The notes beneath the pieces are model-generated. The model was not told where the DNA came from. It did no database searches and saw nothing but the letters and a program-made list of their open reading frames with translations. Below are positions 5,163 to 48,616 of a stretch of 64,000 nucleotides of DNA, one piece after another (position 1 is the stretch's first letter; each line of letters starts with the position of its first letter). The position numbers and the translations under genes were made by a program. Origin of the DNA: an uncultured delta proteobacterium (lineage in GTDB: Bacteria > Desulfobacterota > Binatia > Binatales > Binataceae); assembly GCA_963806485.1 (NCBI GenBank), contig CAWDXY010000001.1, forward strand, positions 270,212 to 334,211. The letters are read 5' to 3'.

Positions 5163-6527
5163 TTGATGACAACCACCAACGGAAAGCTTCCTTCAATCAA
5201 AACCGCAGTTCCGGGACCCAAGTCGAAGGAGATCTTCGACCTCGAACAAAAATATATCGCGCCGGGCCGCCAGCGAATCTCGCTGCTGGCCGGTCTCGCG
5301 TTCGATCATGGCGAGGGCGCGACGCTCACCGACGCCGACGGCAACACCTACGTCGATTTCTTCGCGGGAGTGGCGGTCGCAAGCCTTGGCCATGCGCATC
5401 CGGGGCTCGCGCAGGCGCTGTCGAAGCAGGCGTCGCGCCTAATAGTCGGCACCTTTGCGACCAAGGAGCGCGCCGCCGCGTTCAAAGCGTTGGCCGAAAT
5501 CGCGCCCGCGGGACTTACTCGCGCACATCTATATAGCGGCGGCGCCGAGGCGGTCGAAGCAGCGCTCAGGCTGGCGCGTTCCGCGACCGGCAAGCATGAG
5601 GCGGTGAGTTTCTGGGGCGGCTTCCATGGCAAGAGCGGCGGCGTTTTGGGACTTATCGGCGACGAATCGAAGCAAGGCTACGGGCCGTTGCAGGGTGGCC
5701 AGTACACCGTTCCGTATGCGGACTGCTATCGATGCCCGTTCAAGTTGAAGTATCCCGACTGCGGGCTCTACTGCGTCGATTTCGCGCGCCAGCAGATCAA
5801 GATGAGTTCCAGCGGCGCGCTCGCCGCGATCGTCGCCGAGCCGATGCAGGGCACGGCGGGCAACGTGATTCCGCCCGACGACTGGCTGCCCGCGGTCAAG
5901 TCGGTCGCCAAGGATTTCGGCGCGCTGCTGATTGCCGACGAAATGATCACCGGCTTCGGACGCACCGGAAAATGGTGGGGCGTCGAGCATAGCGGCACTC
6001 GTCCGGATATCGTCACGGTCGGCAAGGGGATGGGTTCGGGATTTCCGGTTTCGGGCGTGCTGCTGAGCGACGAGCTGGGCAAGGCGGAGCCGTTCGGCAA
6101 GCCGAGCGCGTCGTCGTCGAGCTACGGCGGAAATCCGCTGGCGGCGGTCGCCGTGTCGGAAACGATCGGCGCAATTCAGCGGCAGCATCTGGTCGAGAAC
6201 TCGCGCAACGTCGGCGCGATGATGCTGTCGCGGCTGGTGCAGCTCAAGGAAAAATACGAATTTATCGGCGACGTGCGCGGCAAGGGGCTGCTGATCGGCG
6301 TCGAACTGGTGCGCGACCTCGAAAGCAAGGAACTGCTCGGCAAAAAAGTCACCGAGCTGATCTTCTCCGAGTGCCTGAAGCGCGGGCTGGTGATGATGGC
6401 CTACTTTCCCAAGATTCGAATCAATCCCTCGCTGGTGATCACCGAAGCGCAGGCCGAGGCGGGCGTCGAGATTCTGGACGAAGTGTTCGCGCACGTTCGC
6501 GACCACGTTGACTGGCGCAACGCGTAA
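5163..6527 (+). CDS. Class III (acetylornithine/ornithine/GABA-type) PLP aminotransferase, possible HpnO analog
   Basis: 454 aa with typical class III aminotransferase N-terminus and PLP-lysine region (TVGKGMGSGFP). HpnO of hopanoid clusters belongs to the same class. Confidence 0.65.
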   Translation: MMTTTNGKLPSIKTAVPGPKSKEIFDLEQKYIAPGRQRISLLAGLAFDHGEGATLTDADGNTYVDFFAGVAVASLGHAHPGLAQALSKQASRLIVGTFATKERAAAFKALAEIAPAGLTRAHLYSGGAEAVEAALRLARSATGKHEAVSFWGGFHGKSGGVLGLIGDESKQGYGPLQGGQYTVPYADCYRCPFKLKYPDCGLYCVDFARQQIKMSSSGALAAIVAEPMQGTAGNVIPPDDWLPAVKSVAKDFGALLIADEMITGFGRTGKWWGVEHSGTRPDIVTVGKGMGSGFPVSGVLLSDELGKAEPFGKPSASSSSYGGNPLAAVAVSETIGAIQRQHLVENSRNVGAMMLSRLVQLKEKYEFIGDVRGKGLLIGVELVRDLESKELLGKKVTELIFSECLKRGLVMMAYFPKIRINPSLVITEAQAEAGVEILDEVFAHVRDHVDWRNA

Positions 6528-6543
6528 GCGAAATCTTTTTCTG

Positions 6544-7017
6544 ATGGCCAATCCGAATGGCAACGCGGCGCTGTTTTTCGATCTCGGCGGCACTCTCGTC
6601 AAGCTGAACGAGTCGCGCGAGATTCCGCTCGACGCCGACGGCAATATCGTAATCGAACTGCTACCCGGCGTGGCCGACAAGCTTCGGCCCTTGCATAACC
6701 ATCTGATGTTCGTCGTGACCAACCAGGCGGGAATCCGGCGCGGCCGTCTGACAGCTGAGAAAGTCGAAGCCGCGCTCGAGGAGCTCGACAATCGGCTCGG
6801 CGATATCCTGACCGGATGGCAGGTCTGCCCGCATACCGACGACGACAATTGCGAATGCCGCAAGCCGAAGGGCGGCATGATTACGGAGCTCGCGGATTTG
6901 TACGGCGTCGATTTGGCGTCGTCGACAATGGTCGGCGATCAGGAAGTCGACCGGCTGGCAGGCGAAGCAGCGGGCGTCGCGAAGTTCGTCGCGGCGGCGG
7001 AATTTTTTCGATGGTAG
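6544..7017 (+). CDS. HAD-IIIA phosphatase (GmhB / histidinol-phosphatase-like)
   Basis: FFDLGGTLV motif I and the Cys cluster CPH..C.CRKPK typical of GmhB-like phosphatases. Start chosen at the ATG at 6544 to avoid a 20-nt overlap with the aminotransferase. Confidence 0.6.
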   Translation: MANPNGNAALFFDLGGTLVKLNESREIPLDADGNIVIELLPGVADKLRPLHNHLMFVVTNQAGIRRGRLTAEKVEAALEELDNRLGDILTGWQVCPHTDDDNCECRKPKGGMITELADLYGVDLASSTMVGDQEVDRLAGEAAGVAKFVAAAEFFRW

Positions 7018-41555: not shown

Positions 41556-42812
41556 ATGGCATCTTCAGCAGCGGTATTGCAGCTCAAGTCGGAATCGATC
41601 GAGCAGGCGGGGAGGCAGCCCGGCGACGCCGCGCGGCCGGGATACAACGTCGCGCTCGGGTATCTTCGCGGATTTCTCGTCGTGATGGTGCTGGCGCATC
41701 ATTCGGTGCTCGCGTACATCGACGTGCCGCTGACCCAAGCCAAATCGCTGCTGACGCAGCCGCAATATTGGCGCGCCTTCATGGTGATAGATCATCAGCA
41801 CTGGACGGGATTCGGTCTTTTCACCGGCTTCAACGACGATTTCTTCATGTCGCTGATGTTTTTCGTCTCCGGGTTGTTCGTATGGTCGAGCCTTCAACGC
41901 AAAGGCAACGCGAGCTTCGTCCGCGATCGACTGCTGCGCCTCGGTATCCCATTTCTGTTCGCGGCAGCGATCATCGCTCCCGCCGCATACTATCCGACCT
42001 ATCTGCTCACGACCGGCGCACACAGTGTGGCCGATTACATTCACGATTGGATGTCGTTTGGTGATTGGCCAACGGGCCCGGCGTGGTTCATCTGGCTATT
42101 GCTCGCGTTCGATCTCGCCGCAGCGGCGTTGTTTGCCATCGCGCCGAACTTTGGTGGAACGCTAGGGCGTCTTGCGTCGAAAGCGCACGAGCATCCGGTG
42201 CGCTTCTTTCTGCTGTTGGTCGCCGCTTCCGCTGCAGTCTTCATTCCGATGAGCGTCATCGTCGGCCCGGAGGGTTGGACCAGCATCGGACCGTTTCAGT
42301 TCCAGACCGCCCGGTTGTTTCACTACGCGGTCTATTTTTTGTCCGGAATCGGCGTTGGCGCCTACGGGATCGAGCGCGGCCTGCTCGCGCCTGACGGGAA
42401 GCTCGCTCGGCATTGGGCGCGATGGACCGCCTGGATGGTCTTCGCGTTCGTCTCGAGCGTGGTTTTCTTCCTGATAGTGATATCGCAGAAAGGCGGGATA
42501 TCGGTAAACACCGCGAACCTGATCGGCGGCGCATTTTACGCACTCGCCTGCGGCTCGATCTCGTTCGCTTTCCTCGCGCTGTTCGTGCGCTTCGCCACAC
42601 GGCGCCGTTGGATCTACGACAGCCTCAGCGACAACGAATACGGGATGTACCTAATCCACTACATGTTCGTCTCGTGGCTGCAGCTCGCGATGCTACGGTC
42701 ATCACTCCTGGCGATCGAAAAAGGAATCCTGGTGTTCGCCGGAGTACTCCTGCTGAGCTGGGGCGCTAGCGCGGCTGTGCGCAGCATTCCGGGCGTATCG
42801 CGGATAGTTTAG
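41556..42812 (+). CDS. Acyltransferase family 3 (OpgC/OafA-like) integral membrane O-acyltransferase
   Basis: About 10 TM helices, N-terminal LRGFLVVMVLAHHS motif typical of acyltransferase_3. Confidence 0.7.
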   Translation: MASSAAVLQLKSESIEQAGRQPGDAARPGYNVALGYLRGFLVVMVLAHHSVLAYIDVPLTQAKSLLTQPQYWRAFMVIDHQHWTGFGLFTGFNDDFFMSLMFFVSGLFVWSSLQRKGNASFVRDRLLRLGIPFLFAAAIIAPAAYYPTYLLTTGAHSVADYIHDWMSFGDWPTGPAWFIWLLLAFDLAAAALFAIAPNFGGTLGRLASKAHEHPVRFFLLLVAASAAVFIPMSVIVGPEGWTSIGPFQFQTARLFHYAVYFLSGIGVGAYGIERGLLAPDGKLARHWARWTAWMVFAFVSSVVFFLIVISQKGGISVNTANLIGGAFYALACGSISFAFLALFVRFATRRRWIYDSLSDNEYGMYLIHYMFVSWLQLAMLRSSLLAIEKGILVFAGVLLLSWGASAAVRSIPGVSRIV

Positions 42813-42911: not shown

Positions 42912-44525
42912 ATGGCCGAGAATCGCAAGCGAAAGTTCTGGGGATGGGGCTACGAGGACCAGGGGCCGACTCCCGAACAGCAAAAGCACATGGCCGAGCG
43001 GATGGCCAAGCGATTCGGGCTCGGACCGCTAGAGCTAACGCCGCCGCCGAAGGAAAGCGAGCTGAATCTGCGCGCGCCGCGCGTGAAACCGCCGTCGGCG
43101 CTGGAGGCGATTTGCTCGACAGCGACGCATGAGCGCGCGGGACATACGTACGGCAAGGGGTCGCGCGATATCAGGCGGGCGTTCCGGCGCGACTATCCGA
43201 ATCCGATCGACATCGTCGCATTTCCGCACGATGAGAAAGAACTTATCGGCGTGCTCGAATGGTGCGACGGCGCGAATATCGCGGCGGTGCCGTATGGCGG
43301 CGGCTCGAGCGTCGTTGGCGGAGTCGAGCCGCCGGAAGGCGACCGTTATCGCGGCGCGGTATCGATCGATCTGATGCATCTGGACAAAGTCGTGGAAGTC
43401 GACAAGGTCTCGCGCGCGGCGCGAATCCAGGCTGGTGTGTATGGGCCAGCGCTCGACGCGCAGTTGAAGCCGCATGGCCTGACGATTCGGCATTTCCCGC
43501 AGTCGTTCGAATTCTCGACGCTGGGCGGATGGATCGCGACGCGGTCCGGCGGGCATTTCGCGACGCTCTTTACGCATATCGACGACTTCGTCGAATCGCT
43601 GCGGGTCGTGACGCCGACTGGAATCGTCGAGTCGCGCCGCTTGCCCGGCTCAGGCGCGGGTCCGAGCCCGGACCGGATGTTCATCGGCTCGGAGGGAATT
43701 CTCGGCATCATCACCGAGGCGTGGATGCGGCTCCAGGACCGGCCGACGTTTCGCGCGGGCGCGTCGGTGCCGTTTCCAAGTATTTTCAAGGCGGCGGATG
43801 CAGTACGTCAGATTTCGCAGGCGGGAATCTATCCCGCGAATTGCCGCGTGCTCGACGAAGGCGAGGCGTTCAATTCCGGCGCGGGCAACGGCGACGAGGC
43901 CGTGCTGGTGCTGGCGTTCGAGTCCGCCGATCATCCGCTGGAACCGTGGATGAAGCGGGCGCTCGAGTGCTGCGCCGATCACGGCGGGAAAATTCCGACG
44001 GACGCGGAGAAGACTCGCACCGACGCCGAGGCGACGCATGAAGGATCGGCGGGCGCGTGGCGCAACGCGTTTCTGAACGCGCCGTACCTGATGGACACGG
44101 TGGCCGCGATGGGAATGGTGAGCGACACGTTCGAGACGTCGATCACGTGGGAGCGATTTCCGGAATTTCATCGCCAGATGATGGAGTGCGCGCGCGAGGC
44201 GATCGCGCGAGTGTGTGGCAAGGGCACGGTGACGTGCCGATTCACGCACGTTTATCCTGACGGGCCGGCGCCGTACTACACGATCCTTGCACCGGGCAAG
44301 CGCGGCTCGGAGATCAAGCAGTGGGACGAAATAAAGGCGGCGGTGTCGGACAAGCTAATCGCGATTGGCGGCACGATCACGCATCATCACGCGGTCGGCC
44401 GGTATCATCGGCCGTGGTACGACCGGCAGCGACCGGATGGATTTGCGCTCGCGCTGAAGGCGGCGAAACGCGCGCTCGATCCGCGCGGGATTCTCAATCC
44501 GGGCGTGCTAATCGATCCCGATTGA
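42912..44525 (+). CDS. FAD-linked oxidase (PCMH-type FAD-binding domain), alkyl-DHAP synthase / D-lactate dehydrogenase-like
   Basis: KRKFWGWGYED N-terminus and FAD-binding region (VPYGGGSSVVGG), 537 aa, FAD-oxidase C-terminal domain. Confidence 0.65.
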   Translation: MAENRKRKFWGWGYEDQGPTPEQQKHMAERMAKRFGLGPLELTPPPKESELNLRAPRVKPPSALEAICSTATHERAGHTYGKGSRDIRRAFRRDYPNPIDIVAFPHDEKELIGVLEWCDGANIAAVPYGGGSSVVGGVEPPEGDRYRGAVSIDLMHLDKVVEVDKVSRAARIQAGVYGPALDAQLKPHGLTIRHFPQSFEFSTLGGWIATRSGGHFATLFTHIDDFVESLRVVTPTGIVESRRLPGSGAGPSPDRMFIGSEGILGIITEAWMRLQDRPTFRAGASVPFPSIFKAADAVRQISQAGIYPANCRVLDEGEAFNSGAGNGDEAVLVLAFESADHPLEPWMKRALECCADHGGKIPTDAEKTRTDAEATHEGSAGAWRNAFLNAPYLMDTVAAMGMVSDTFETSITWERFPEFHRQMMECAREAIARVCGKGTVTCRFTHVYPDGPAPYYTILAPGKRGSEIKQWDEIKAAVSDKLIAIGGTITHHHAVGRYHRPWYDRQRPDGFALALKAAKRALDPRGILNPGVLIDPD

Positions 44526-44549
44526 GCTGATCGCCGGATTGAGCGGCGT

Positions 44550-44741
44550 CTAGTGGCCTGTGCGGCGGCGATAACGCTCGATTACAAACACGGCCGAGCC
44601 AGCCAGCAACGCCAACCCAGCGATGCTCAGGCTCGGATCGAGCTCGGGCGCAGTGCCGACGATACCCGCTAACGCGGCTTCAGGTACGAGAACGAATACA
44701 ATCGATGCCACGACCACCGCGACTCGCAATGCATCCTTCAT
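44550..44741 (-). CDS. Mini-protein: signal peptide plus VPEID-like (APELD) C-terminal sorting domain, copy 1
   Basis: MKDALRVAVVVASIVFVLVPEAALAG-IVGT-APELDPSLSIAGLALLAGSAVFVIERYRRRTGH: signal peptide, about 5 residues, then xPE[IL]D motif + TM helix + Arg-rich tail. Confidence 0.5.
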   Translation of the reverse strand: MKDALRVAVVVASIVFVLVPEAALAGIVGTAPELDPSLSIAGLALLAGSAVFVIERYRRRTGH

Positions 44742-44779
44742 CGAATCTGATCCTCCCAACGATGCGCGCGATCCATGTC

Positions 44780-44968
44780 CTACTTCGTGCGGTGGCGATA
44801 ACGCTCGATTACAAAGACGGCCGCACCACCCAGCAACGCCAACCCTGCGACACTCAGGCTGGGGTCGAGCTCAGGCGCCGACGGGCCAAGACCCGCCAGC
44901 GCCGCTCCAGGTGCGAGAACGAATACGATTAATGTAACGACCTCCGCGAGTCGCGATGCACCCTTCAT
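44780..44968 (-). CDS. Mini-protein: signal peptide plus VPEID-like (APELD) C-terminal sorting domain, copy 2
   Basis: MKGASRLAEVVTLIVFVLAPGAALAG-LGPS-APELDPSLSVAGLALLGGAAVFVIERYRHRTK; tandem paralog of copy 1. Confidence 0.5.
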   Translation of the reverse strand: MKGASRLAEVVTLIVFVLAPGAALAGLGPSAPELDPSLSVAGLALLGGAAVFVIERYRHRTK

Positions 44969-45000
44969 CGAAGCTTCCCCTCCCCAATGATACGACACGT

Positions 45001-46062
45001 CTACCGGACGGACTTCGTTATTTCAAACGCTTTGTTGCGCACTATTTCCGGTGCCGGCGCGGATGTCTTCACGCGCAGAAGCCTCGCCAGAGGATAGACC
45101 AGCTGCGCCGCATATACCGCTGCAAATTCGCCTACGGAAGCATCCTGTTCGACCGGAAACGTGGAGTCCTGAAGGCCGAGCTGCGTTTCATACCGATCGT
45201 AGGAGCGATGCTGCGTGCCGAAAATATGATCCCACACGCTGAAGAAAATTCCGAAGTTAGTATTCTGCAGGCGCGGATCGCTGGCGTGATGAATGCGATG
45301 GGACTGCGGGGTCACCAGGATGTAACGCAACGGTCCGTAGTTCGATCGGATCGGGCAATGGTAAAGCCGGAAATGGATCAGCGCCACGGCGTTGTAAACG
45401 CCGATCACGACCAGGCCCGGCGTCAGAAGCATCAGGGGCAGAGTCCTGATCGCCAGGTCGGCGAAGGTATCAAGGTCGTGAAAGCGATGCTGCGTGAATA
45501 AGTTCAGTTCCTTTTGCGAGTGATGAACGGCGTGAAAATTCCACAAAAAATCGAATCGATGCCGCGCGATGTGACTTCCATAGGCAAGAAAATCCCCGGC
45601 CAGTATGCCCACGACCAGCAGCATCGCGCGCGGCATCGCTCCCGGCGCAATCAGCTCGAAGTCACCCAGTACGTGGCGCTTTATCCAGACGAGAAAGACG
45701 AAATACAGCGGCATCCAGGTCAACTGGCGTGCCAGTTCTCCACCGTACCACAACGAGTCGAACCAGAGCCCGCGCGACACCGTGCGGTCGGACGCATCGA
45801 TTGGAAATAGTCGCTGGAGCACGAAGCTCCAGATCAGTACTGCGGCTGCCCAAGTCGTCGCGCCCAGCAGAAAACGCCACGGATCCAGGTTGATCGCCGC
45901 GGCGAGCGGTGGGGCTTCCGCAAGTGCGCCCGGATGAGCAGTGGCGACGTGGACGACGAGGATGGAGCCGATAACGAAACCGGCCGCCAAAATCAAGAGG
46001 ACTACTGCCGTCCCCGCGGTCGTGAGACGGAACGCTCGAGGCGCTAATTCCATAGTGCCCAA
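45001..46062 (-). CDS. Fatty-acid hydroxylase / sterol desaturase-family membrane protein
   Basis: Histidine boxes HIARHR, HAVHHSQ, HRIHH on a polytopic membrane protein. Overlaps the upstream exosortase-like gene by about 19 nt. Confidence 0.65.
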   Translation of the reverse strand: MGTMELAPRAFRLTTAGTAVVLLILAAGFVIGSILVVHVATAHPGALAEAPPLAAAINLDPWRFLLGATTWAAAVLIWSFVLQRLFPIDASDRTVSRGLWFDSLWYGGELARQLTWMPLYFVFLVWIKRHVLGDFELIAPGAMPRAMLLVVGILAGDFLAYGSHIARHRFDFLWNFHAVHHSQKELNLFTQHRFHDLDTFADLAIRTLPLMLLTPGLVVIGVYNAVALIHFRLYHCPIRSNYGPLRYILVTPQSHRIHHASDPRLQNTNFGIFFSVWDHIFGTQHRSYDRYETQLGLQDSTFPVEQDASVGEFAAVYAAQLVYPLARLLRVKTSAPAPEIVRNKAFEITKSVR

Positions 46063-47759
46063 CTTCCTGTCGCCATCACGTATGCCGCCAGGAGCGCGTT
46101 GCAGGCAGAATGCGCGACGATGGCGTCCGTCAACCGTCCGCGCCTGTATAGCACAATTGCGAAGGCCATCCCGGCAAGAATCCCGGCGATCCAGTTGCGA
46201 TGCAGCAGACCGAACAGGATCGACGAGAGCAGAAAAGACAGCCAGGTGAAGCGCCGAGGATCAACAGACTCGAAATCCGCCAAGACCAGCTTTCTCACCA
46301 GGTAACCGCGAAAAAAGAGCTCTTCCGCGATCGGAACGGTCACAACCGCACCCGCCACTCGGAAGACGAGCCAGCAGTATCGCTCCCATTCAGGAAGGCC
46401 TCGCAGCGAAGCCGCCATCGCCGAATCGTACAGTGGCCCGGACCATCCCGCGATCGCAATCCAGATCGCAAAAACCACGGCGCCCGCTCCAAGGGGTGTC
46501 CAGTCAGGATTCCATCCCAGGCGAGCGATCTCACGGCGATAGACGAACAACACCGCGGCCGTAGCTAATACGGTTATGGGGTAAAGAAAATTGAATGACG
46601 CCGCGAACGGCGTGGTAAGGATCCCGGCAGCGAGTGTCACCAGCATCGGCAGTAGGTACATGTCCGCGGGCGAGGTTCGTTCGCTCGCGTGCGGCGCGGC
46701 GTCGAGCGGATCGGCGCGGAAGGTGGATATAGTGCGGCTCGAGACAACTAACCCAACCCCCAGGACATTGAGGAAGAGCCACCCGGCTGTCGAATGAAAA
46801 AATCCGACCGCCATCCTCGGATTGTGTTGGCCGATCATTACCAACGCCGTTAGCCGGACATCGTTCAAAAGCCAACTCAGAATCACGCCAGCGGGGAAGA
46901 GGAGCAGAGCAAACGGGAAACGCAGACTCTTTCGACAAAACCAGAGATATGCGGCAAGGAAGAGCGTGATAAGAACGATGCCCTCGATTCCGGAGCATTC
47001 CGGTGCGACTAGAACCCTGAAACCCGGGACGGCGATGGAGTGGCGCTGCCAGTTGAGTACAGGATGCTGCCCGAGCGCGCTCAGCGTCGCGGCCGCGGCC
47101 CAAATGGAGAAGTCGTACATCGCGGCCGGCAGTGTGTGAATGAAGTTTCGCAGTACAGGCGCAGCGAGTCCGACTCCGATGCCGCCTCGGAATGCGCCTG
47201 GCCTCGCGCGGTACCACTGGCCCCAGAGTTCGACTGGGATCAGTGCGAGCGCGACGGTTGCCATCGCGCCGATGCCGAGCGCCATCCGCACGATCGCCCA
47301 GGCCGCGACGGATTGCGGCGAAGCGAAAAACCGGGGACTGAGGCCGCTCCACGCCACGAGCGCGCCAGCCAGCATCAGGTGAATCGCCAGAATTCTCTTG
47401 CGCTCGGAAACCGGAACCGGCGTGACCAATACACGCATCGCTAGCGCGGCAAATTCCGTCCGGCTCAGCAGAATCGTCGTCGTTGCGGCCACCAGAATGA
47501 AGTCTTCGAGCCGTTCCGTGAGCGTGCCCAGCAAGCGGCGCACGTCGAGTCCGCCATGCATGAGAATCGGCGTCGAATTGGAGAATCGGTAGTAGGCTGA
47601 AATTTCGGCGCAAAGAAGTACGACAAGAAACGCGCAGTATGCAGGCGAAGAGAGTTGGTAGGCGATCTCAGGCGTGCGAGTAGAGATCGCAATCGTATCC
47701 GGCGCGATCGATGGCTCCACTGTGCTGTCGTGTGCCACCACCTGCGCACCTTTCGTCAT
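46044..47759 (-). CDS. Exosortase fused to CPBP/CAAX-type intramembrane protease (XrtE-like exosortase/protease)
   Basis: Exosortase signatures: catalytic Cys in APECSGIEGIV and LLNDVRLTALV (N..R). C-terminal CPBP motifs EELFFRGYL, FGLLHRN, HSACN. Start at the Met of MTKGAQ; the 130-aa Arg-rich N-extension in the track was rejected. Confidence 0.6.
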   Translation of the reverse strand: MTKGAQVVAHDSTVEPSIAPDTIAISTRTPEIAYQLSSPAYCAFLVVLLCAEISAYYRFSNSTPILMHGGLDVRRLLGTLTERLEDFILVAATTTILLSRTEFAALAMRVLVTPVPVSERKRILAIHLMLAGALVAWSGLSPRFFASPQSVAAWAIVRMALGIGAMATVALALIPVELWGQWYRARPGAFRGGIGVGLAAPVLRNFIHTLPAAMYDFSIWAAAATLSALGQHPVLNWQRHSIAVPGFRVLVAPECSGIEGIVLITLFLAAYLWFCRKSLRFPFALLLFPAGVILSWLLNDVRLTALVMIGQHNPRMAVGFFHSTAGWLFLNVLGVGLVVSSRTISTFRADPLDAAPHASERTSPADMYLLPMLVTLAAGILTTPFAASFNFLYPITVLATAAVLFVYRREIARLGWNPDWTPLGAGAVVFAIWIAIAGWSGPLYDSAMAASLRGLPEWERYCWLVFRVAGAVVTVPIAEELFFRGYLVRKLVLADFESVDPRRFTWLSFLLSSILFGLLHRNWIAGILAGMAFAIVLYRRGRLTDAIVAHSACNALLAAYVMATGSWALWN

Positions 47760-47881
47760 TGTTGTTTCTGTTGACGCTGGTTTAGCAAACAGCCGCGTGA
47801 CTCTAGAACGGCCGATGAAAAGTGTCAACTGAAGTTGCTGAACTCCCAGGCGCAGAGCCTGATGAGCCGCTGCGCGTTCAC

Positions 47882-48199
47882 TTAGTCGTCGATCTTCAGT
47901 TGTTTTTTTGCCGCGTCGCTCATCATGTGCGGCGTCCATGGCGGATCCCAGACGATCTCGACGCATGCGTCGTCGCAGCCGGGGATGCCGAGCAGCTTGT
48001 CCTGGATGTCCTGCGTGATCGACATACCCATCTGGCAGCCGGGCGCGGTGAGCGTCATCGTGACGTTGACGACGCGGTTGTCGATGGCGACGCCGTAGAT
48101 GAGTCCGAGGTCGACCAGATTGACGGGAATCTCGGGGTCGTAGCACTCGCGCAGCACTTCGTAAACGTCGGCTTCGGTCGGTGCGGGCGAATTCTCCAT
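47882..48199 (-). CDS. DUF59/MIP18-family Fe-S cluster assembly protein (SufT-like)
   Basis: VYEVLRECYDPEIPVNLVDLGLIY and conserved Cys (TAPGCQMG), 105 aa. Confidence 0.7.
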   Translation of the reverse strand: MENSPAPTEADVYEVLRECYDPEIPVNLVDLGLIYGVAIDNRVVNVTMTLTAPGCQMGMSITQDIQDKLLGIPGCDDACVEIVWDPPWTPHMMSDAAKKQLKIDD

Positions 48200-48277
48200 A
48201 GTACAGAGTCTAGTATATAAGAAGGTGGGTGTGCGCGATATGCACGGTGCGGCGCGCGCATCCAGCGGAGGTCCGAG

Positions 48278-48616
48278 ATGCCCGACAAAGAAGAACTGTA
48301 CGACGAAGCTATCGACGCATACGCCGACGACAAGTTCGACGAAGCGATCGAGCTATACAAGAAGGCGCTCGAGATCGATCCGAAGTACGTCGATGCGATC
48401 CACGGAATGACGATGTGCTACCAGGCGAAGGGCGATCTCGACGCGGCGATCGAGTTGACGAAAAAATATATCGCGCAGGAGCCGGAAGACATCCTGGCGT
48501 ACACCAACCTCAGCATGTTCTATCAGAAGAAGGGCATGGTGCCGGAAGCGGAGGCGGCTGGCGCCGAGGCGCGGCGGCTGGACTGGAAGCGGCAACTCAA
48601 GGAAGGCAAGAAGTAG
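48278..48616 (+). CDS. Tetratricopeptide-repeat protein
   Basis: Three TPR-like units (AIELYKKALEIDPKYVDAIHGM...). Confidence 0.6.
   Translation: MPDKEELYDEAIDAYADDKFDEAIELYKKALEIDPKYVDAIHGMTMCYQAKGDLDAAIELTKKYIAQEPEDILAYTNLSMFYQKKGMVPEAEAAGAEARRLDWKRQLKEGKK

Follow-up and report, generated by a model that had tools for sequence, protein, structure and literature searches.

What does an exosortase deliver when the candidate substrates beside it consist of little more than a signal peptide and a sorting tag? The question is raised by a locus on the minus strand of contig CAWDXY010000001.1 from an uncultured delta proteobacterium, at 44550-47759 of the 64-kb stretch analysed here (the window). 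Exosortases were predicted in 2006; to our knowledge, neither the acceptor to which they join their substrates nor a transpeptidase activity has been established. The original prediction placed four minus-strand genes in a row at this locus, and all four open reading frames (ORFs) were present where it had put them: XrtE, an exosortase fused to a protease (571 amino acids, aa), a fatty-acid-hydroxylase-type gene, and two tandem mini-genes, mini1 and mini2. Our explanation is a dedicated XrtE system in which the mini-proteins would be processed to short peptides and transferred to a lipid. Taken as a whole, we give it a probability of roughly 55%.

XrtE had been read as an exosortase core joined to a CPBP protease domain, the architecture of exosortase E/protease, and the profile searches bore this out. 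TIGR04162 ('exosortase E/protease, VPEID-CTERM system', curated cut-off 150 bits) aligned with residues 118-569 over profile positions 73-515 of 516 and scored 225.4 bits (E 1.6e-66). Pfam detected PF09721 Exosortase_EpsH at residues 117-336 (46.6 bits, cut-off 25.7) and the Rce1-like PF02517 at residues 463-556 (59 bits). TIGR03008, a PEP-CTERM-associated CAAX-protease-related family, gave 158 bits over residues 386-570. As the TIGR04162 cut-off was passed and Exosortase_EpsH was present, the protein is not a polytopic membrane protein with a CPBP domain only. All motifs named beforehand were read directly: PECSG (Cys255), LLNDVR (Arg302), EELFFRG (Glu479/480, Arg484), FGLLHRN (His520), and HSACN (His550, Asn554). 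In an alignment of XrtE with 17 homologues (A1, 18 sequences, identity down to 28%), the exosortase triad C255, R302, and H322 and the CPBP set E479, E480, R484, H520, H550, and N554 were invariant, and both catalytic centres look intact. At least 120 homologues were listed, and the source records of many call them 'exosortase E/protease (VPEID-CTERM system)'. XrtE is a true member of this family by every sequence criterion tested.

The deposited XrtE gene call (P0001) is 505 aa long and starts at Met67 of the 571-aa reading, leaving off 47561-47759. This shorter form loses the first predicted transmembrane (TM) helix (residues 39-60). The relatives are 571-582 aa long and align from residue 1, and the deposited start appears to lie some 66 codons too far downstream. 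An AlphaFold model built from A1 was all-helical with a mean pLDDT of 77. A sequence search of the PDB with XrtE gave no match, and searches of the searchable literature for XrtE and VPEID-CTERM returned nothing relevant and no experimental data for any XrtE. On long-read contigs of metagenome-assembled genomes (MAGs), the hydroxylase or XrtE was split into two gene calls at three loci (L089 2989-4725, L081 6791-7793, and L082 6957-7789). Because sister contigs carry intact genes, these splits are probably frameshift errors and not true pseudogenes.

The two mini-genes lie 1.1-1.3 kb downstream of XrtE in the same operon. The starts given for them earlier, GTG 44998 and TTG 44759, were mechanical first starts; the real ones are ATG 44968 (mini1, 62 aa) and ATG 44741 (mini2, 63 aa), and exactly these products are gene calls on record. 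The 15 nucleotides upstream of each ATG contain a Shine-Dalgarno-like sequence, GGGGAGGGG for mini1 and GGGAGGA for mini2. Both proteins showed the same order of elements: a basic n-region, an h-region, AALA, a five-residue spacer (GLGPS/GIVGT), APELD, a helix of about 19 residues, and ERYR(H/R)R. The ending in APELD, hydrophobic helix, and basic tail was seen as claimed, and no other ORF in the window combined PE[ILV]D with a TM helix and a basic tail. The two proteins are 73% identical; between their genes, 17 changes are synonymous and 19 non-synonymous (proportions pS 0.33 and pN 0.15). For twelve mini-genes of the clade, pN/pS was 0.35 overall, with 0.22 for the tag, 0.44 for the signal peptide, and 0.59 for the spacer. 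In the clade alignment of 37 mini-proteins (A3), the AxA pair, P-E-L-D, E55, R56, R58, and R60 were invariant, the spacer varied in sequence and in length (usually one to five residues), and mean column identity was 58%, both helices included. The basic n-region, h-region, and invariant AxA of the alignment suggest a signal peptide, which would present the tag from outside the membrane. Conservation, purifying selection, and the Shine-Dalgarno-like sequences speak against spurious ORFs; where it had been allowed that the mini-ORFs might be non-conserved and untranslated, we found them conserved, under selection, and always adjoining XrtE.

The tag had been assigned to the VPEID type. Its tripartite xPELD-TM-basic layout supports this, but the curated model does not: TIGR04161 (VPEID-CTERM, cut-off 33 bits) gave 13.4 bits for mini2 (E 0.06) and no match for mini1 at E<=1. 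The tag is treated here as a divergent PELD/ERYRRR flavour of VPEID-CTERM that appears lineage-specific. Some close mini homologues carry a precomputed 'weak' PF27847 match, and a local Pfam scan found no PF27847 match on the mini-proteins. No PEP-CTERM family was among the NCBIfam matches at E<=1, and the motif is PELD, not PEP, in line with the claim that this is not a classic PEP-CTERM tag. Five mini homologues (P0125, P0150, P0154, P0202, and P0214) carry the JGI name 'membrane protein implicated in regulation of membrane protease activity'. An NfeD-like identity was rejected, as no NfeD-type match appeared in Pfam or NCBIfam at E<=1 or E<=10, and the name is probably driven by composition.

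Close XrtE relatives (67-86% identity) showed the same order of XrtE, hydroxylase, and mini-genes, so that the arrangement pointed out in the original prediction is conserved. The order was kept in L001, L081/82, L084, L086, and L088-L091, with one to eight mini-genes: L091 has a single copy, the window and L084 have two each, L088 has three, L081, L082, and L086 have four each, and L090 has eight. In L001, XrtE was only 43% identical and the order was the same, with one mini-gene. Most of these loci were flanked by a 2-hydroxyacid dehydrogenase gene upstream and a Mur ligase gene downstream, whereas the window cassette is flanked by a SufT-like gene and a FAD oxidase gene. The flanks differ while the order is kept; therefore, the three-part cassette travels as a unit.

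On a 509-kb metagenome contig, L090 carries eight tandem genes for mini-precursors of 58-62 aa after XrtE and the hydroxylase (5370-7007), with conserved flanks and differing spacers after AxA, e.g., SA, GITP, FP, GG, GRI, and DG. On CAVOUW010000003.1, a 3.27 Mb MAG contig, two XrtE-hydroxylase-mini cassettes (L001 and L089) are separated by about 2 Mb. The tag is APEFD in one cassette, which holds a single mini-gene, and A/VPELD in the other, where a profile hidden Markov model (HMM) of the tag gave three matches, two of them called as genes.

Tandem, variable peptide genes also recall bacteriocins, and CPBP/Abi (PF02517) proteins are often bacteriocin immunity or processing proteins. The mini-genes would then encode membrane-active peptides, with the CPBP ('Abi') domain as the immunity function of the producer. 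We consider this highly improbable. Neither the window nor the compared relative loci contained a double-glycine leader, a C39 peptidase, or an ABC exporter, and the peptides bear a putative Sec signal together with an exosortase-type tripartite tag. In addition, the CPBP domain forms one protein with an intact exosortase, and among stand-alone families it is nearest to the PEP-CTERM-associated TIGR03008.

Two database searches looked for larger proteins with the same tag. The word-indexed one, over 5.8 billion proteins, yielded 100 mini homologues, all of 57-72 aa. An exhaustive profile HMM search of 1.84 billion cluster representatives gave 171 matches at E<=0.001. Among the best 150 of these, 147 were 39-121 aa long (median of the 150, 66 aa), and almost every small protein among them ends in xPE[LIV]D, helix, and basic tail; the three large matches were repeat proteins, matched in 5-69 internal stretches. 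No full-size protein with the PELD tag was found in the word-indexed search or among these best 150 profile matches. The concern that the real substrates are full-size proteins located elsewhere thus found no support in the databases. The profile search also turned up PELD and PEID forms with an ERYRRR tail.

We also examined the surroundings of XrtE homologues, using 80 genome loci and the loci of close relatives. The record titles of the 80 loci name Bryobacteraceae, other Acidobacteriota, Gemmataceae, Isosphaeraceae, Binataceae, methanotrophs, and Myxococcales. In a motif census, 66 of 88 loci had tagged candidates on the same strand as XrtE and no more than 3 kb from it; these 98 candidates have a median length of 60.5 aa, and 83 are at or below 80 aa. 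With the tag HMM, at least one ORF with C-terminal xPE[ILV]D-TM-basic was present in 75 of 92 XrtE loci, and several of the others lie on contigs that end early. The near-absence of a mature domain, which had been contrasted with usual exosortase substrates, was confirmed with the five-residue spacer but is not peculiar to this locus: XrtE neighbours in Acidobacteriota, Planctomycetota, Binataceae, and methanotroph MAGs (by record title) generally consist of 'signal peptide plus tag', and the window's clade is the extreme case. The PELD form occurred mainly in loci titled Binataceae or 'delta proteobacterium'. About 11 of 90 XrtE-adjacent mini-proteins roughly reached the TIGR04161 cut-off and 57 of 90 matched at E<=0.1; the curated VPEID-CTERM model is narrow. 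Where spacers were longer, they were of low complexity, often rich in His/Gly, Pro, or Asn/Gly, and never formed a recognisable domain. Short His/Gly-rich or Asn/Gly-repeat spacers between AxA and xPE[IL]D were observed in other lineages, in L014, L035, L037, L002, P0350, P0356, P0359, and P0366 (HGHGHGHGWGH, GHHLGHHPH, NDDGRGNDDGRG), and such spacers could bind metal.

From the tag, its conservation, and its constant position beside the enzyme, it is very probable that the two mini-genes encode cognate substrates of XrtE in a self-contained, dedicated exosortase-E system. The mini-proteins could instead be no cargo at all, acting as two-helix membrane subunits, regulators, or pseudo-substrates of XrtE and/or the hydroxylase, with the tag as a docking element. 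Conservation across the whole 60-aa protein, both helices included, would suit such a role, as would the positive-inside rule for a stable hairpin (K/R at the N-terminus, RYRRR at the C-terminus) and the fact that there is essentially nothing to deliver. However, the strongest constraint lies on the PELD-TM-basic tag, the part that is cleaved off in other sorting systems, and the AxA cleavage motif is invariant. A copy number of one to eight would be odd for a stoichiometric subunit, and elsewhere low-complexity spacers of 20-60 residues occupy the same position, as cargo would. A subunit or regulator is therefore quite unlikely.

The hydroxylase gene is the third part of the cassette. Its ORF spans 45001-46062 when called mechanically; the recorded gene call runs from ATG 46053 (350 aa), with an alternative TTG at 46062. 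In the window, L084, L088, and L090, its start overlaps the XrtE stop by 10 nucleotides. Because of this overlap the hydroxylase belongs to the XrtE operon, and the overlap points to translational coupling. PF04116 (FA_hydroxylase) scored 90.1 bits against a cut-off of 31, and three His boxes were present, HIARH (H164xxxH168), HAVHH (H177xxHH181), and HRIHH (H255xxHH259). By family and motifs it is an enzyme of the membrane di-iron type in the FA_hydroxylase superfamily. The top NCBIfam family was OlsE (NF052566), with 99.1 bits over residues 137-298 only; OlsE and other PF04116 enzymes share with it the superfamily, the three His boxes, and multiple TM helices. As with XrtE, no PDB sequence matched the hydroxylase.

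To survey the neighbours, all ORFs within 4.5 kb of XrtE were clustered for 88 loci. FA_hydroxylase was by far the most recurrent neighbour family: protein clustering placed it at 14 of 88 loci, and tblastn at 19 of 92. The next family, a Wza-like polysaccharide exporter, drew its members from eight loci, of which four were methanotroph. The XrtE-linked hydroxylases fell into two groups. One is the window's clade, where a 55%-identical homologue (L091) again adjoins XrtE and a mini-gene; the other is a separate acidobacterial group (L030, L039, L044, L046, L049, L052, and L077) with differing gene orders and sometimes opposite orientation. Arrays of at least three mini-genes were present at 8 of 19 hydroxylase-linked loci and 2 of 73 unlinked ones, in a set of related loci with partly biased sampling. 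The hydroxylase had been taken for an odd insertion between sortase and substrates; it proved to be a conserved, overlapping partner in the clade that recurs in a distant second XrtE lineage. In the methanotroph loci L014, L016, L018, and L035, three common neighbour families were observed about 1-3.5 kb downstream of XrtE, matching Poly_export/SLBB (the Wza-like exporter), a BBP2_2 beta-barrel porin, and a DAO-type FAD oxidoreductase. This neighbourhood is an exopolysaccharide (EPS)-locus context, which is absent from the window.

We propose the following course of processing. The precursor would insert as a helical hairpin whose two basic ends remain cytoplasmic and whose AxA-spacer-PELD loop faces outwards. 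Either signal peptidase I or the CPBP domain would cut off the N-terminal helix after AxA. The exosortase Cys would then attack PELD and discard the C-terminal helix, and the remaining peptide (e.g., GLGPSAPE or GIVGTAPE) would be kept as an acyl-enzyme and resolved by transfer to an acceptor. From the precursor sequences we infer a product of about 5-9 residues. Tandem mini-gene copies would provide amount and spacer variety. As for the acceptor, the tentative candidate is a membrane lipid modified or created by the co-translated hydroxylase, so that the product would be an encoded, short, lipid-linked envelope peptide. We suggest this, at somewhat less than even odds, because related sorting enzymes have been linked to lipid attachment and the sole recurrent partner is an oxygenase of the membrane-lipid type. 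With ArtA, loss of the C-terminal helix is coupled to lipid attachment, and rhombosortase substrates likewise end with an attached anchoring moiety (10.1101/2023.06.07.544157). In a still more specific form, which is unlikely, these would be ribosomal peptidolipids: the encoded 5-9-residue peptide would be transferred to a hydroxylase-prepared lipid, e.g., via the created hydroxyl, and arrays of up to eight genes with differing spacers would diversify this decoration of the cell surface.

The same cuts could have another outcome. Two protease domains might trim both ends and free a diffusible, possibly modified peptide or signal of 5-9 residues, in parallel with staphylococcal AgrD. The precursors have conserved flanks and a short core that varies in sequence and length, and the tandem arrays of one to eight copies hold different cores, as would be expected of such a system. 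The unusually conserved N-terminal helix would suit recognition by a dedicated protease, and the CPBP protease MroQ is documented to act on a precursor of about 46 aa (PMC9388083). In the loci compared, however, no receptor kinase, response regulator, or exporter was conserved beside the cassette. The invariant AxA suits ordinary signal peptidase I, and the cores are tiny and mostly composed of G/A/V/P/S/T, which is poor material for specific recognition. A secreted peptide also leaves the hydroxylase partner unexplained, and we regard it as unlikely.

Several observations weigh against processing by XrtE with transfer to a lipid. The hydroxylase was missing from about 80% of XrtE loci and is therefore not essential to the core reaction. 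Its identity as OlsE, the family nearest to it, was rejected (99 bits against a cut-off of 475). Hydroxylases at 40% (L092) and 34% identity (L093) showed no XrtE linkage, and in the sequences sampled the link of the subfamily to XrtE did not extend below about 50% identity. The placement of these unlinked hydroxylases between the two XrtE-linked groups in a rough neighbour-joining tree suggests either two recruitments or one ancient link followed by losses, the tree being too weak to decide. The signal peptide in A3 was more conserved than ordinary signal peptides; this could reflect recognition by the CPBP domain, or an uncleaved hairpin could be the functional form. Fold searches found no informative structural relative.

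Compared with known systems, the cassette combines familiar parts in a different way. PEP-CTERM systems process many large, often glycosylated proteins per genome and are sited in EPS loci. XrtA/PEP-CTERM with its separate TIGR03008 protein shares with XrtE the exosortase Cys/Arg/His core and a CPBP partner, but the only tagged products of the window are the 60-aa precursors, and no EPS genes flank its cassette. The closest system is exosortase E/VPEID-CTERM (TIGR04162 and TIGR04161; PF27847), with which it shares the N-terminal exosortase and C-terminal CPBP domains of an enzyme above the TIGR04162 cut-off, adjacent substrate genes, the xPE[IL]D-TM-basic tag, and tiny substrates. It differs in the PELD...ERYRRR tag scoring below the TIGR04161 cut-off, in having its substrates as a downstream array and not as a single upstream gene, and in the conserved hydroxylase gene that lies between enzyme and substrates and overlaps the XrtE stop. 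Exosortase-CAAX protease fusions were noted already in 2006 (PMC1569441).

The archaeosortase ArtA of the PGF-CTERM system belongs to the homologous enzyme family, and its helix removal coupled to lipid is the precedent for a lipid step (10.1101/2023.06.07.544157); its substrates, however, are large S-layer and other glycoproteins, and ArtA has neither a CPBP fusion nor a hydroxylase partner. Myxosortases and related CPBP sorting proteases (MrtC/MrtX/MrtJ/MrtS) are likewise Rce1-like glutamic intramembrane proteases for C-terminal tripartite tags. Their tags hold an invariant Cys, whereas the mini-proteins contain no Cys, and the enzymes lack an exosortase domain; their models matched XrtE weakly (32-35 bits against cut-offs of 75-250). 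The AgrB/AgrD/MroQ pheromone maturation of staphylococci is alike by analogy only, with a short variable-core precursor trimmed by a membrane Cys-peptidase at the C-end and a CPBP/Abi protease at the N-end (PMC9388083). AgrB is not homologous to exosortases, the mini-proteins have no Cys for a thiolactone, no two-component sensor lies near the cassette, and the host contigs are soil-type Gram-negative MAGs.

The features of the cassette are collected in Table 1. The promoter-like site was the sole one of its kind in 44300-48300; shuffled sequences gave a mean of 1.3, i.e., chance level, and it is suggestive as an XrtE promoter by its position alone. Two genes on the plus strand converge on the cassette; the first (41556-42812) encodes a membrane acyltransferase of the Acyl_transf_3 family, the second (42912-44525) a FAD_binding_4/FAD-oxidase_C protein of 537 aa. 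The N-terminal 'KFWGWGYED' of the latter may recall alkyl-DHAP synthase of ether-lipid synthesis. A functional tie of these genes to the cassette was set aside, as the neighbours differ in relatives, and their convergent placement is probably a coincidence.

Table 1. Features of the XrtE cassette, with positions in the window.
Feature	Position	Strand	Evidence
Promoter-like site, TTGACA-17-TAGAGT	47800..47828	-	in 122-nucleotide gap upstream of XrtE start; 10/12 consensus matches
XrtE, exosortase E/CPBP-protease fusion, 571 aa, polytopic membrane protein	46044..47759	-	TIGR04162, TIGR03008, PF09721, PF02517
Exosortase domain, about residues 117-339; Cys255 (PECSG), Arg302 (LLNDVR), His322 (FFHST)	46743..47411	-	PF09721, residues 117-336
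CPBP/Rce1-like intramembrane protease domain, residues 463-556; EExxxR, FxxxH, HxxxN	46092..46373	-	PF02517, 59 bits
Predicted FA_hydroxylase-superfamily membrane di-iron hydroxylase, 350 aa from ATG 46053	45001..46053	-	PF04116, 90 bits; three His boxes
Mini-precursor 1, 62 aa; MKGASR, h-region, AALA-GLGPS-APELD, TM helix, ERYRHRTK	44780..44968	-	recorded gene call
Mini-precursor 2, 63 aa; MKDALR, h-region, AALA-GIVGT-APELD, TM helix, ERYRRRTGH	44550..44741	-	recorded gene call

The hydroxylase-coupled, arrayed PELD cassette is a variant of the known but unstudied XrtE kind, and no description of it was found in the searchable literature. Most XrtE-adjacent substrates, these two included, lie below the VPEID-CTERM threshold and are therefore annotated as hypothetical, misnamed, or missed. 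With a cargo of just 5-9 residues beside its enzyme and a lipid-type hydroxylase, the cassette offers about the simplest handle on the question of the exosortase acceptor. Its product should be small enough for direct mass spectrometry, and three genes should suffice for reconstitution. If the peptidolipid reading were true, it would mean a new route to lipopeptides and the first acceptor chemistry of an exosortase.

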